From the NCBI GenBank assembly GCA_038087875.1, contig CM075992.1, forward strand, positions 3,164,001 through 3,228,000: a stretch of 64,000 bases of DNA. Reading direction: 5' to 3'. Position numbers and translations under genes: made by a program. Position 1 is the first letter of the stretch, and each line of letters opens with the position of its first letter. The notes under the pieces are model-generated. The model was not told the origin of the DNA. It did no database searches and saw nothing but the letters and a program-made list of their open reading frames with translations. This document shows positions 5,838-62,716 of the stretch, in pieces. This stretch comes from Malacoraja senta. Lineage: Eukaryota.

Positions 5838-5921
5838 AACTATTTTCAGGATGCTTGGAATGTATTTGATTTTGTGACGGTCTTGGGCAGTGTCACTGAT
5901 ATATTAGTGACAGAGTTTTGG
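5838..5921 (+). CDS. CACNA1A: CACNA1A exon 31 equivalent (IVS3), 84 bp
   Basis: ccacag|AAC TAT TTT ... TTT TGG|gtaagt; [28 protein letters not shown]. Confidence 0.94.
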
Positions 5922-6158: not shown

Positions 6159-6358
6159 NNNNNNNNNNNNNNNNNNNNNNNNNNNNNNNNNNNNNNNNNN
6201 NNNNNNNNNNNNNNNNNNNNNNNNNNNNNNNNNNNNNNNNNNNNNNNNNNNNNNNNNNNNNNNNNNNNNNNNNNNNNNNNNNNNNNNNNNNNNNNNNNNN
6301 NNNNNNNNNNNNNNNNNNNNNNNNNNNNNNNNNNNNNNNNNNNNNNNNNNNNNNNNNN
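6159..6358. other. Assembly gap (200 N)
   Basis: Run of N. Confidence 0.99.
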
Positions 6359-7919
6359 AAAGGGACCTGTAACTTAATGATTAAATGTTCAAGAAGGAAC
6401 TGCAGATGCTGGAAAATCGAAGGTAGACATAAATGCTGGAGAAACTCAGCGGGTTGCCAGCAGCATCTATGGAGCGAAGGAAATGGCCGTCGTTTCGGGC
6501 CGAAACCCTTCTTCAGACTTTTTTCTGGAGGGAAAACCTCTTCAAAGTAGGCATACCTTGAGAGATTTCGCAGTGGAGTCTGAGAAGGGTTTCGGCCCGA
6601 AACGTTGCCTAATTTCCTTCGCTCGCTGCCTCACTCGCTGAGTTTCTCCATCATTTTTGTCTACCCATAACTTAATGACAATGTGTTACGGGGAGGAAAG
6701 GGTGAATGTTTATTGTTGAGGATGATGTGTGCGTAAATGGAGTTGGCTCTGTAAACATGAAGGGGGGTGTTTGCTAATTGTCTATTTCAGGTTTACCCCT
6801 TGGAAAGGTACGTGTGAAAGTGTGTGAACGGGAGCATATTCAGTGTTTCTGGACTTTTTTTTTCGCTGCATGCCTGATTGATCCATGATCACAGTGATGG
6901 ATTGGTTCGACTCCAGTACCTGGCAACATGCGGGAACTGGACACATCGTGGGGATTAGTTCTTGCTGTGTCCAGGCCCGGTTAGAATCAAAGTTGTGCCA
7001 TTGAACATTAGCCCCCTGTACTATCGACCTCGAAGATTAATGGAAGCAGGCCAAGTGTGCCCACCCTCTTGTGTGGGAGTCTTGCTCACTTAACCCACAG
7101 TCTTTTCTCACAGAGAGTGGTGAGTCTGTGGAATTCTCTGCCTCAGAGGGGCGTGGAGTGCCGGTTCTCTGGATGCTTTCAAGAGAGAGCTAGATAGAGC
7201 TCTTAAAGATGGGGATATGGGGAGAAGGCAGGAACGGGGGTACTGATTGGGGATGACCAGCCATGATCACATTGAATGGCGGTGCTGGCTCGAAGGGCAC
7301 GAATGGCCTACTCCTGCACCTATTGTCTATTGTCTATTCACCCCGATGCTCAAATTTGGGATCCTGCAAGTTTAATGACCACAATTTGCATTATGTTGCC
7401 TGTAGTTAGCTCTCTCTGTACAAATGGCAGCACCTTGCTCGAGGGTAAAGTTCAAAGCCATGTACAAGGATGAGTGTCCCTCCCCAATCCACACTGTGAA
7501 CCATTCCTGTGTGTACCAGTGTGTCGTTATTGTATTAAAGAAGGAACTGCAGATGCTGGAAAATCGAAGGTACACAAAAATGCTGGAGAAACTCAGCTGA
7601 GTTTCTCCAGCATTTTTGTGTACCTGTCGTTATTGTATGTTGATGTAGATCATCAGCAGAGAAAGAAAGAAAGCCAGGTGCTGTTAATGATTGACTTTTT
7701 ATCTTGTTTTATCTTTTCACATGCTGTCTTTAATCTGTGCTTAAATGGCTCAACGCCCGTCTGAAATAACTCATCCAATCAAAATGCACTATGAAATTCA
7801 TGTGTCCATCCATGTATGCGTGCGTCTCTGTCTCCATGCCAACTAATTTTATAAACGGGTTGCAAACCAATCCCAATGCAATCCAATTCCAATCATCCAT
7901 CAACAACATCTACATATAG

Positions 7920-7925
7920 ACCACG
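7920..7925 (+). CDS. CACNA1A: Candidate 6-nt microexon (exon 31a/31* equivalent) encoding Thr-Thr in the IVS3-S4 loop
   Basis: tatag|ACCACG|gttggt, phase 0. About 240 nt AG-free upstream (7678-7917), a YCAY cluster and AACTAAT at 7841. It sits in the intron where mammalian Cav2.1 NP and Cav2.2 ET microexons lie. Confidence 0.7.
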
Positions 7926-8249
7926 GTTGGTTTGTAACTTTTTGAGCCTAATGCATTCACGATCTAAGTACCCTTGGCATGGCACGCACTGCTGAACTGT
8001 GAACTGCTGTTGCTACCTTGCATTGTGTTATTTGGCATGGCTTGCAGACTCCCCCAAATCATTTCCGAATCATAGACATGTTTCAGAAGGAACTGCAGAT
8101 GCTGGGAAAATCGAAGGCAGATAAAAAAATGCTGGAGAAACTCAGCGGGTGAGGCAGCATCCATCTATGAGAGTGAAGGAATAGCTGACGTTTCAGGTCG
8201 AGACCCTTCTTCAGACTGCCCCCCCCCCTCCCCCACCTTCCACATCAGT

Positions 8250-12030: not shown

Positions 12031-12991
<961 letters not shown>

Positions 12992-15140: not shown

Positions 15141-16016
15141 CATTGGCGGAAATCCTGGGAGGGACGTGGGGCATATTCCCCCCCCCCCCCTGTGTTTTGA
15201 GAGGTGGGGGACAATCCCCCCCCCCCCCATGTTTGTGAAACATGTTGCAGCAAAACCGCCCAGTAATGGCTGTAACGCCCAGGTGTTCTCGCCTGCCCTG
15301 GGACTGGCTGCCGTTCCCAGGTGTTCTCGCCTGCCCTGGGGCTGGCTGCCGTTCCCAGGTTGGCTCCCTTGCCCCGGGTCTGGCTGTAGCGCCCAGGTGG
15401 TCCCACCTGCTCCGGGACTGGCTGCAGTTCCCAGGTGGTCCCACCTGCTCCGGGACTGGCTGCAGTTCCCAGGTTGGCTCGCTTGCCCCGGGACTGGCTG
15501 CAGTTCCCAGGTGGTCTCACCTGCTCCGGGACTGGCTGCAGTTCCCAGGTGGTCCCACCTGCTCCGGGACTGGCTGCAGTTCCCAGGTTGGCTCGCTTGC
15601 CCCGGGACTGGCTGCAGTTCCCTGGTGGTCTCACCTGCTCCGGGACTGGCTGCAGTTCCCAGGTGGTCTCACCTGCTCCGGGACTGGCTGCAGTTCCCAG
15701 GTGGTCTTGCCTGCCCTGGGTCTGGCTGCAGTTCCCAGGTCACCTGCCTGCCCCGGGTCTGGCTGTAGTTCCCAGGTGGTCTTGCCTGCCCTGGGTCTGG
15801 CTGCAGTTCCCAGGTCACCTGCCTGCCCCGGGTCTGGCTGCAGTTCCCAGGTCGCGAAAACGAATTGAAAAAGAATACGCCTGCGGGCTGGATGATTTCG
15901 AGTTAAGGGCCAGATCCGGCCCGTGGGCCGTTGGTTGCCAACCCCTGTCCTAGATGTCAGGCCTCATTGTGTCCCCCTCCCCCCCCCCCATGTTTTAAAA
16001 GCGATTTCCGCCCATG
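15141..16016. mobile_element. hAT-like non-autonomous element carrying a minisatellite
   Basis: CATTGGCGGAAATC ... GATTTCCGCCCATG termini; flanks GGCTGAAG / GGTTGAAC (6/8). Confidence 0.65.
15265..15852. repeat. GC-rich minisatellite, about 38-bp unit, about 15 copies
   Basis: CCGGGACTGGCTGCAGTTCCCAGGTGGTCCCACCTGCT and variants in tandem. Confidence 0.95.
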
Positions 16017-27881: not shown

Positions 27882-27998
<117 letters not shown>

Positions 27999-28472
27999 TG
28001 ACTTCCACTAAGCTACCAACTTCGGCATCAATGAATGAGTGTGCTTCCTCCTTGTTTTTTGCATTTCTTGGAGTAGAATGTACAGGAAAATGCAGTCGGC
28101 TAGACAAACCAGCATGGAATATGCACATCTACCTCAGCCTCAGACATTGCTGCTTGTATGAACCAAAACCACCTGGCATCTTGGGTTCAGTAGTGTTCAT
28201 TGCTGTCGGGGACAGAAACTGCATTGACATAGACCGCATCTCCTCACAACAGGCTTCTCATCAAAGATTTCTCTTTCTGTGCGTCTCTATGCAATAGTTA
28301 AGACAATTGCATAGTAATTGGGTGAATTTCTGTGGTTGACAGACCCGTAAAGAATAACCTTGTAATTTTTTTTTTGTGTTTTTTTTTTGTTTGTTCCCTT
28401 CCGTTTTTTTTTTTTAACCCTTTACGTTCGTCACGGACGCATCCTCTTTATTGCCTCATTTCCGCTACGCAG

Positions 28473-28569
28473 TGGCCGCATCAGTTACACTGATATGTAT
28501 GAGATGTTGAGACACATGTCTCCACCTTTAGGCCTGGGAAAGAAATGTCCTACGCAAGTTGCTTATAAG
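28473..28569 (+). CDS. CACNA1A: CACNA1A mutually exclusive exon 37b (EFb), 97 bp
   Basis: T-rich tract upstream, acgcag|T GGC CGC ... TAT AAG|gtagaa; [32 protein letters not shown]. Confidence 0.93.
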
Positions 28570-51827: not shown

Positions 51828-52151
51828 GTCTGGGCAATCCACTTCTCTATAGAGACTATGAAATCATCTGGTGTGTTCTGTTCTGCTCTTTCTATCTGCT
51901 TAATGTATAACTGTTCTATCTTTGTGCTTTTTCCTTCTACCACATTTTTTTATTTCTTACAATAAAACCAACTGTGTCCTTACCTGTGGCTTCTTCCCAA
52001 ACCCTGGACATCTCGTTGCCGCCTTTGCGATGTGGGGGTCCTCCTGCGGCCATTTTCTGTCACGTCTGTCCTGTCGCTGCCTTCTCTCCTGTCTTGTGTC
52101 TTTTTACTTCCTGCCCTTTTAATATGCGCTCTCTTGTGTGGCTGATAACAG

Positions 52152-52187
52152 AGGAGAAAAGTGCGCAACCGTGGGATTAACCTTAGT
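52152..52187 (+). CDS. CACNA1A: CACNA1A exon 44 equivalent (36-bp cassette exon)
   Basis: taacag|AGG AGA AAA GTG CGC AAC CGT GGG ATT AAC CTT AGT|gtatgt; RRKVRNRGINLS versus recalled human RRRGRPRGNNLS. About 295 nt AG-free pyrimidine tract upstream. Confidence 0.88.
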
Positions 52188-55670: not shown

Positions 55671-57200
55671 GGCAGATGTTGGTTTAAACCGAAGATGGAC
55701 ACAAACGGCTAGAGTAACTCAGCGGGGCAGGCAGCGTCTCTAGAGAGAAGGAATGGGTGACGTTTCGGCTCGAGACCGTTTGAAGAAGGGTCTCGACCCG
55801 AAACGTCACCCGTTCTTTCTCTCCAGAGATGCTGCCTGTCCCGCTGAGTTACTCCAGCTTTTTATGTCTTCCCCCTGAAGTATTCCCTGTTATTGCTGAA
55901 TCCATTGTTGGCTCTGGCAGGTTGTGGTTTGCCTGATCAAAAGATGAGAAGCTGTTCTTCAAACTTACTTTGAGCTTCGAAGATAGACCCAAAATGCCGG
56001 GGTAGCTCAGCCTGTCCCGCTGAGTTACTCCAGCATTATGTGTCTATCTTCCATGGAAACTAGCGTCTGCTGTTCCTTCCTACACATTACTTTGAGCTTC
56101 ATCGGAATACTTCAGGGAGTCATGAACGGAGACGTCAGAGTGGGAATGTGGAATTGAGGCGGTTGGAATTAGTGAAGAGGAGTTGTGAATGTTCTGTGGG
56201 TAGTACAGATTTTTAGCTACATTTAGTTTAGGGACACTGTGCAGAAACAAGCCCTTCGGCCCACCAAGTCCATGCCGTCCAGCGATCCCCGCACATTAAC
56301 ACTATCCTACACACTGGGGACAATTGATATTTACATCAAGCCAATTAACCTACAAACCTGTACGTCTTTGGAGTGTGGGAGGAAACCGAAGATCTCGGAG
56401 AAAACCCACGCAGGTCACGGGGAGAACGTACAAACTCCGTACGGACAGCACCCGTAGTCAGGATCAAACCCAGGTCTCTGGCGCTTAAAGCGCTGCCAGG
56501 CAGCAACTCTATCGCTGCGCCACCGTACCGCCCTCTAGAAAATACTCTCGAAAGATTCATTAATAATTTTACTAAGTCATGTTTCTTAAATTATTTTGTT
56601 ATTGCTTAGAGATTGTCTGTAAAAAATATTTACAGCTGCAGCATGAGGTACATAAATAACTTATATATATCCACGCTGAGTATCTCTAAACTGCAGTAGG
56701 ATGTTGTTAATAGATTTATGGTTCATATAAACTGGTACCTGCTGTTTTATTACGGACATTAAGAATTTATAATGGAGAATGTGTGAACTAATAACATTGC
56801 CAGTGGAGGAAGGTACAATTTCAGAAACATACTTCCACCGATGAATATCTAGTAATTCAGAATTTATGATCATACAACTGCATAAAATAAGTGACCATGT
56901 TAGGAAGATCAGACATTGACAGATATTTAGTAATCTTCTGTGTGCAAGATGTGCATGCATGTATGTATGGCAACGCATGCATAAATTGTTATTTTATCAC
57001 AAAAATAGTTCTAGTGTTTGAGGACAGAACAGGCCACTTTGATGATGGAAGATTCAGTACAGTTGGGTTCAACAACTGTATAGACATTGTGCCTTTTGTT
57101 TTTCATAAAACCTTTACTTTTCACGCACTCACATTAGCTGTGTAACCATGTTTACAAAAAGAGTGTCTCCTTGAATGATGCACATTTTGTCTCGCATCAG

Positions 57201-57393
57201 ACCATCGAAGACACAAGCCCAATTAAGCGATCTGCATCCACGCTGGGCCATCAGCGCTCCAAGGGCATACGGCTGGATGACTACTCGCTGGAGAGGGTCA
57301 TTCCCGAGGAGTCACAAAGGAGCCATCGCCGCAGGGAGAGAGGTCATAGGACATCAGAGAGGTCGTTGAGTCGATACACGGATGCGGACACAG
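57201..57393 (+). CDS. CACNA1A: CACNA1A exon 45 equivalent, 193 bp
   Basis: catcag|ACC ATC GAA ... GAC ACA G|gtcagc; [64 protein letters not shown](G). Confidence 0.93.
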
Positions 57394-57600
57394 GTCAGCC
57401 CTTTTTATTACTCATCGAGGAATGGCCTTTTGCCTTTAAACTGAGTGTCTTGCTGGCCAATTGATATGACACATAATGTCTTGCTGGCCAGTTGAGATGA
57501 TACATAAGTGACAATCACATCACTAGGAGACTAGATTTATATGCAAGTTTGGCCATGTAAGGATGGTTCAGTTTAGTTTATTGTCACGTGTACCGAGGTA

Positions 57601-60814: not shown

Positions 60815-62716
60815 CAGGGGTGGGGAACCTTTCCATGTTGGAATGCCAGATTAAGTTAGCTGTAATCTAATAAGGCCGCATCCAAGAAACTTCAATTAGA
60901 TATACTTCACCACATTTATCTTGAAAGTTGTTGAAGAAATCTATTCCTCGTGTTCTACCCGTAAGAGTGCCCAAAGCACTCTTCGTAGCAATAAAATAGC
61001 CCTCATGACTTACTAATGTTTTAATTGTGGCCGTCAGTTGGGGAGGATTATTTTGTTGAATCTTCTTTTACTCTTTGGTATTTTAAATACGTTCATTTTA
61101 AGATTAAAATTAGAATAATAAAAGACGAACAGTGCATATTAAGAACATAATGTACTGGTTGGATAGTTCCACTCACCAGTCGGAGTGGATAAGAATGGAG
61201 AAAGAGGAGTGTTTGCCGTACGATATAGGAACGATCTTGTTCTCACCGATAAAATTGAATAGTATAATATATAAGAAGAACCCAATTATTCACAATACAA
61301 TAAGAATTTGGAAACAAATAAAATTATCCTTGAAATTAAATAATCTATCAGTACTAACCCCAATATTGAACAATCCTGCATTCAAACCATCTTTTATCGA
61401 CAAAACATATAAACAATGGGATAGACTGTGGATTAGGAAAGTAGGAGATATGTATGAATTGGGCAAATTGTTATCATTTCAACAATTAAAATTAAAATTT
61501 AAACTGAATGATAATCAATATTTTAAATATATACAGATATGTGACTTTATGAAGAAATATATACATAGATTTCAAACTATATTTCTAGACCCTTTAGAAG
61601 AAGCAATGAATATTAAGGCTGATTCACAAAAACTAATATCATATTTTTATAATAGTATATTAAATAGAGAATTACCCTCAACAGAGGCACTAAGAGAAGA
61701 TTGGGAACATGAACTAATGATAAAGATCCCGAAAGATAGATGGGAAAAGTATCTGATGAACACACATAATTGTTCCATTAATGCAAGACATAATTTAATT
61801 CAATTTAAATTATTACATAGACTATATTATTCAAAAACGAGGTTGAATAAATTCTACCCAAATGTCTCTCCCAGATGCGATAAATGTTTGTTTCAAAATG
61901 CCAATATAACACATTCATTTGGAGGATGTACAAAGTTGAATAAATTTTGGAGCGATATATTTGATATATTTACAAAGCTCTTCAAATCAAGAATAGAACC
62001 TAATACGGAATGGATTATATTTGGAATAATAGTAGAAGATATCAATTTAAACAAAGACCAAAAAGTATTCTTTAATTATGGGTTAATAATTGGAAAGAAA
62101 TTGATACATTTTGGGAAAAATACAGCTATACCAACTATTGAAATGTGGATTAGGAATATGACGGACATAGCACACCTTGAAGAAATGAGACTCCGCCTAA
62201 TAGATAAATATGACCAATTCTTAAGGAGTTGGTCCCCTTTCATCGACTTTGGAATCATGTGATGCAGCAGTACCGTAAAGATTACTGATTTCAGGTCAGG
62301 TCGTGGATAGATTTACATCTCCGAACAAAGATTTGAACATTTCTTTTTTAAGGGCCTTTTTCTACTATTTCTACTTTTTACTTTTTCTTTTCTTATATAC
62401 ACACTTCACGTTTTTCTATTTTCTACTATCTATTTTTCCTCTTTTTCATCTCTCTATTTTTTGTATTTTTTTACTTCCTTTTCAAAAACTTAAAACTAGA
62501 GGTTGTACATAGAATTTATTACGTTATGACATAGTTGGCACCTAAAATTAGGTACCACTGTATTGTTTTGTATTGTATTAACTTCTAATAATTTTTTTTT
62601 TTTTAAACACGAACAAAAACATATTAATAAAAATAAAAGGATTTGTTCTACAAAATTTGGATTCATTCAAAAGGCCGCACTTAATGGCCTAGAAGGCCGC
62701 AGGTTCCCCACCCCTG
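60815..62716 (+). mobile_element. hAT (Charlie-like) MITE with nested L1-clade insertion
   Basis: TIR CAGGGGTGGGGAACCT / AGGTTCCCCACCCCTG; TSD TTCTAAAC / TTGTAAAC. Confidence 0.88.
61132..62608 (+). mobile_element. 5'-truncated L1-clade LINE (ORF2 C-terminal region with CCHC zinc knuckle)
   Basis: 376-aa AT-rich ORF with QFKLLHRLYYSKTRLNKFYPNVSPRCDKCLFQNANITHSFGGCTKLNKFW (C-x2-C-x8-H-x4-C), T-rich 3' UTR, flanking duplication ACGAACA. Confidence 0.85.

Follow-up and report, generated by a model that had tools for sequence, protein, structure and literature searches.

A candidate e31a microexon in the IVS3-S4 intron of skate CACNA1A and its alignable counterpart in CACNA1B

The CACNA1A locus and its IVS3-S4 intron

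The stretch of DNA analysed here (the window; 64,000 nt of Malacoraja senta contig CM075992.1, to which all plain coordinates refer) contains the 3′ half of a Cav2 channel gene. In protein comparison, its exons are mostly 80–100% identical to shark and ray Cav2.1 models. The C-terminal exon (57198–57395) has a catshark sequence as its top protein match (97%), and it matches human Cav2.1 (8x90) with an E value of 6e-19, compared with 0.049 for human Cav2.2 (7mix). By sequence the gene is elasmobranch CACNA1A, in agreement with a preliminary description of this DNA, which had also placed a candidate microexon in the IVS3-S4 loop. Indeed, the flanking exons are those of IVS3 and IVS4. Exon 31 (5838–5921, + strand; NYFQDAWN...VTEFW) ends at a phase-0 gtaagt donor, and exon 32 (12148–12264, +), also phase 0, starts ag|KNIINLSF and ends in FK. 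The intron between them spans 6,226 nt, part of which is concealed by a gap of 200 Ns (6160–6359).

Across this junction, the elasmobranch Cav2.1 loop reads EFW-KNII (5919–5921 and 12148–12159), whereas tetrapods have EFG-NNFI. KNII is invariant in 20 of 21 shark and ray models, the remaining one having KSII, and the EFW-KNII loop may change toxin binding at the IVS3-S4 site.

Other features of the two Cav2 genes of this genome were recorded alongside. Two similar exons of the EF-hand region lie in tandem at 27897–27995 and 28471–28569 (+), each of them matched best by different database isoforms, and the Cav2.2 gene has an equivalent pair (C3024:415086-415178 and 415560-415655); the arrangement fits the mutually exclusive 37a/37b pair. 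Candidate 12-nt e24a cassettes are present in the domain III S3-S4 introns of Cav2.1 (G000:C16:3154471-3154482, L030) and Cav2.2 (G000:C3024:346917-346928, L025), with predicted peptides NIMG and SFLG, respectively, and one catshark model does carry a 12-nt e24a insert in domain III (SLMG). The window also holds an array of tandem units of ~20–40 nt (15270–15850, in the intron after 14633) and a 382-aa open frame (61114–62262, +), which seems to be the C-terminal portion of an ORF2 from a LINE-type element.

The candidate microexon and its AG exclusion zone

Within intron 31, the six nucleotides ACCACG at 7920–7925 (+) are preceded by an AG (7918–7919) and followed by the weak 5′ splice site gttggttt (7926–7933; six of 11 U1 matches), so that the ag|ACCACG|gttggt arrangement of the preliminary description is found as described. 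Lying between two phase-0 exons, the 6-mer would be an in-frame cassette encoding Thr-Thr, which is predicted to extend the outer IVS3-S4 loop when included. An exon of 10 nt (donor at 7930) or of 14 nt (donor at 7934) was considered and rejected, as neither donor scores better (6/11) and the frame is shifted; the 14-nt version, furthermore, has a donor with no counterpart in the paralogue.

The AG at 7918–7919 is the first past an AG exclusion zone of exactly 240 nt (7678–7917, +; preceding AG at 7676–7677), the length that had been given approximately before. No other AG-free zone in the intron is as long, and among the ~4,055 gaps between successive AGs in the window this zone ranks third. 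From its composition 8.7 AGs would be expected, and none of 20,000 mononucleotide shuffles was AG-free. Of the two gaps that exceed it, the larger is a CA microsatellite and the other (295 nt) precedes another cassette exon, which acts as an internal control. This 36-nt exon, RRKVRNRGINLS (52152–52187, +), which we take to be exon 44, lies behind a pyrimidine-rich AG-free zone at 51855–52149, and its peptide is present in seven and absent from 13 shark and ray Cav2.1 models. Since the 295-nt zone ends at a variably included exon, long AG-free zones mark alternative exons in CACNA1A.

The sequence surrounding the candidate is a repeat-free island, as had been claimed: the island has no self-repeat match inside the window, and 7806–7960 matches the genome once in a search that skips very common words. 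Taken alone, AG-N6-GT is a common pattern that occurs 24 times in the intron, which would be compatible with a chance ag-N6-gt in AG-poor sequence. The candidate is the sole real case of the 24 to stand behind a zone longer than 200 nt (one N-gap artefact being ignored).

A counterpart in CACNA1B and inserts in other vertebrates

A search of the genome for its own Cav2 genes returned one other, on contig C3024, while no Cav2.3 gene surfaced among the top candidates, which were the ones scored. The C-terminal exon of the second gene matches 7mix (Cav2.2) at 5e-16 versus 6e-7 for 8x90 (Cav2.1), and the gene is CACNA1B on this sequence evidence. The longest AG-free zone of its intron 31 measures 214 nt and ends at ag|CAACTG|gttggttt, the single one of the 39 AG-N6-GT sites in that intron to stand behind a zone longer than 200 nt. 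The candidate 6-mer CAACTG (G000:C3024:384506-384511) would encode Gln-Leu, in the context VTELV-QL-HNFINLS. Two duplications were seen in the assembly of this gene. L033 (G000:C11:11317454-11320603) and L034 (G000:C3024:400857-404006) are 99.7% identical over 3.1 kb, so the assembly has a portion of the Cav2.2 gene in two copies, probably a haplotype duplicate; a near-identical tandem duplicate of ~5.3 kb in a domain III intron (G000:C3024 ~353,500-358,600 / 358,700-364,100; L026-L027) is either genuine or an assembly artefact.

The two introns share an alignable block. Window positions 7698–7933 align with G000:C3024:~384292-384519 over ~235 nt, with 158 of 213 aligned columns identical (74%) and 34 gap columns. 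The alignment score of 104 lies ~14 SD above that of 1000 dinucleotide shuffles (30 ± 5, maximum 57), and the best off-target tiles reach 41 (180 tiles) and 37 (526 tiles). Identity peaks at 7761–7820 (45/60), at 7871–7919 (38/49) and in the donor (8/8), where the alignment ends exactly; the downstream flanks score 24, which is the shuffle level. When the window was compared by blastn with 87 kb of the paralogue, 23 of 1,639 matches were left after repeat masking, of which 12 are exons, two are the e31a block and nine are non-collinear. Outside the exons, the block is thereby the sole collinear match of the two sequences. A pattern derived from both 3′ ends occurs at only these two sites in 1.94 Gb, a circular result that nevertheless excludes a repeat. 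The dipeptides differ between the paralogues, with four of the six bases identical. The conservation of the block is the strongest evidence for e31a homology, and the alignment, together with the shared intron, exon length and donor, effectively refutes a chance origin, to which we assign next to no probability.

A conserved block could instead serve another role, such as an intronic enhancer, a small RNA missing from annotation or an RNA element that affects how exons 31/32 are spliced, the 6-mer being never or hardly included. The weak donor and the skipping of the 6-mer in every shark and ray model that covers the junction (see below) would both agree with this. However, conservation stops precisely at the donor, AGs are excluded on the sense strand over 214–240 nt, the length of six nucleotides is the same in both genes, and neither the paralogue block nor window 7806–8060 has an Rfam match at E ≤ 1; we therefore consider a role of this kind decidedly unlikely. 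A further explanation accepts the exon as real and attributes the likeness of the paralogues to later gene conversion in cartilaginous fish rather than to descent from the duplication. Although 74% is a high identity for non-coding columns after a duplication of that age, it resembles that of the neighbouring coding exons (73–86%), the genes reside on different contigs, the alignment has many indels, and both mammalian genes also carry e31a (PMC12149502; ET in human 7mix), all of which makes conversion quite improbable. Descent from the duplication is the reading we retain. Because the block is kept in both CACNA1A and CACNA1B, the e31a switch is likely to be older than the split between Cav2.1 and Cav2.2.

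We then consider the same junction in other vertebrates, using 307 Cav2.1-type proteins, a biased sample made up of 24 matches, the best 120 of 590 matches and the listed cluster members. Among these database models, 187 have no insert and 74 do not match the junction pattern; the inserts are NP (5), DP (3), SP (1), NL (11), a single Met (25) and VS (1). NP is carried by placental mammals, DP by Tasmanian devil, SP by coelacanth, and NL by bichir and sea bream. The single Met is carried in some isoforms by models from several teleosts (P0185, P0191, P0192, P0197, P0247, P0364-P0416), and this insert is possibly a 3-nt form of e31a. The VS insert, from one wombat model, was not counted as support, as it may be donor read-through. 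Human Cav2.1 (8x90) has no insert, and human Cav2.2 (7mix) carries ET at the junction. These vertebrate inserts would all, we infer, derive from one microexon, e31a. The mammalian NP exon has the same gene, the same junction and the same two-residue in-frame format as the skate candidate, which differs in encoding TT and in its loop (W-KNII versus mammalian G-NNFI). Likewise, ET in human Cav2.2 (VTEIA-ET-NNFINLS) sits at the junction where the M. senta Cav2.2 candidate encodes QL.

In sharks and rays, the junction is covered by 21 of 22 proteins from two clusters (15 of the 26 members being listed for the shark cluster), and all 21 read VTEFW-K(N/S)IINLSF with no insert. The expectation that gene models would lack the candidate microexon is thus borne out. 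The missing insert fits repression in brain or annotation blindness, and also non-use of the exon. The proteins retrieved included no Cav2.2 from a shark or ray, and exon 32, used as a protein query, brought up short genomic ORFs for the most part and not one junction from a shark. Window 7806–8055 gave no match to DNA contigs of four other organisms (four of 24 listed runs, at 80% likeness), a result in which false absence is possible. A search of sequencing runs with the whole intron listed no RNA run, and the shared matches are probably repeats.

Together, these observations suggest that the feature at 7920–7925 is very probably the elasmobranch homologue of e31a, encoding Thr-Thr in Cav2.1, with Gln-Leu in the paralogue. 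Its proposed orthology to the mammalian NP exon, as the preliminary description had it with TT in place of NP, would follow from position and from homology of the paralogue block, and is in keeping with the vertebrate inserts.

Proposed splicing control and possible effect on the channel

Both genes have a branch-like motif and a pyrimidine tract near the 5′ end of a long AG exclusion zone. In CACNA1A, the candidate distant branch points (A at 7687 and 7694, or −233 and −226) are followed by a U-rich tract (7682–7720 in all, +; predicted), and the 30 nt after these motifs are 77–80% pyrimidine; with the CACNA1B motifs at −202 to −190 included, the range is 77–87%. A proximal branch-like AACTAAT is present at 7841–7847 (+; A at −74), as noted previously, and CACNA1B has a branch-like CTCAT at −75, the sequence after these being 50–60% pyrimidine in both genes. 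A branch at −74 would leave a further 140–160 nt of AG exclusion unexplained in both genes, so we lean towards use of the distal site over AACTAAT alone; otherwise the −74 site, or both, would be used. The branch-like role previously given to AACTAAT is thus amended, a distant site fitting the 240-nt zone better than AACTAAT alone. Similarly, the sequence beside the AG is CA-rich, as described, yet the pyrimidine tract is displaced distally (~7697–7720) rather than replaced.

This layout resembles that of the distant-branch-point exons described in PMC1431707, which have regulatory elements between branch and exon. The shared features are an AG-free zone of more than 200 nt, branch motifs and a pyrimidine tract at its 5′ end, and putative motifs in between. 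Unlike a plain case of this type, both Cav2 genes have a second candidate branch at −74/−75, and the branch points here are predicted ones.

Between branch and exon lies a CA-rich block (7771–7900, +) with seven YCAY motifs, at 7771, 7798, 7806, 7810, 7834, 7893 and 7897; further ones occur at 7717 and inside the candidate exon at 7921. The count given earlier is correct, but enrichment is only moderate. The block has seven in 150 nt where the window averages 2.8, yet 17 of 422 tiles have at least as many, and its four in 45 nt are equalled or exceeded in 38 of 262 tiles. The count does not exceed that of dinucleotide shuffles (mean 8.3, P≥obs 0.85), as the region is CA-rich overall. Four of the seven motifs (five of eight with 7717), among them the tandem pair at −27/−23, align with a YCAY of the paralogue, and three of the five conserved ones are kept through a pyrimidine swap. 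Since YCAR is kept about as often (5/9) as YCAY (5/8), conservation does not single out NOVA. Two Rbfox-like GCATG motifs, of the type named in PMC12149502, were seen downstream of the candidate microexon (7977–7981 and 8035–8039, +); the 190 nt that follow the paralogue candidate contain none.

According to reviews, Nova2 promotes the skipping of mammalian e31a, in Cav2.1 as well as in Cav2.2 (PMC12149502, PMC5633781, PMC10676324), and the exon is preferred in sensory and sympathetic ganglia, the domain IV insert altering activation kinetics (PMC10657410). In the skate, the branch point and U-rich tract ~200–230 nt upstream would be used first, and the spliceosome would then scan to the first AG. 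The CA/YCAY-rich stretch between branch and exon would act as a regulatory platform, to which NOVA, by analogy with mammals, could bind and so block inclusion in brain neurons. NOVA repression in brain, with the +2 form found mainly in NOVA-poor peripheral or spinal neurons, is the arrangement we consider probable. Alternatively, a real microexon could be mainly SRRM3/4-activated and hence included in brain. The features given for eMIC targets include extended AG exclusion zones and branch motifs of the CUAAY type (PMC8797185), and the modest YCAY enrichment also agrees with this. On the other side, no UGC is close to the AG (the nearest being ~40 nt upstream in both genes), the acceptor has CA-rich sequence beside it instead of an alternating UC tract, the database models skip the 6-mer, and mammalian e31a is reported to be Nova2-repressed (the papers cited above). 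SRRM3/4 activation is, on balance, unlikely, and NOVA repression is the reading we carry forward.

For the channel, the longer loop could tune VSD-IV and activation kinetics, purely by analogy. The mammalian NP insert specifically gives the Q type. Splicing in general is said to define the P and Q types (PMC11580629), and agatoxin IVA binds near the IVS3-S4 loop in human Cav2.1 (PMC12737659). The agatoxin link of e31a may not be transferable to fish, as zebrafish Cav2.1 is reportedly rather insensitive to ω-agatoxin IVA (PMC7939481). According to PMC12019389, opening of human Cav2.1 is not driven mainly by VSD-IV, and a modest kinetic change is therefore the likelier effect of a Thr-Thr insert. 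CaV1.1 exon 29, an alternative exon in the same loop with a reported activation shift of 30 mV (PMC13661669), is an analogy only, as it encodes 19 residues in an L-type channel of muscle.

More broadly, we propose that, ever since the early-vertebrate duplication, Cav2.1 and Cav2.2 of sharks and rays have each kept an alignable ancestral e31a cis-module, which consists of a distant branch point, a CA/YCAY platform and a weak gttggttt donor. The inserted residues would meanwhile drift (TT, QL, NP, DP, SP, NL, ET or a single M), selection acting on a regulated length of the VSD-IV loop rather than on its inserted residues. We regard this proposal as evenly balanced between true and false. In mammals, the presence of e31a in both genes and its control by Nova2 are already in print, and no new kind of system is put forward. 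The additions are TT and QL as unannotated versions, an ancestral control block that can be aligned between the paralogues, and the interpretation in terms of a distant branch point. Our literature search returned no report of e31a in cartilaginous fish, with the qualification that figures or supplements of the primary papers may already align fish sequences or show the likeness of the introns between paralogues.

The alignment of the paralogues marks bases relevant to branch-point use and NOVA control, and if the proposal is true, the conserved bases would be a ready map of the splicing code to mutate. The variety of dipeptides, furthermore, makes the question of length versus residue testable. 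A neuronal splice switch of presynaptic calcium channels would thus be extended to cartilaginous fish, and its origin would likely date from before the Cav2.1/Cav2.2 split.
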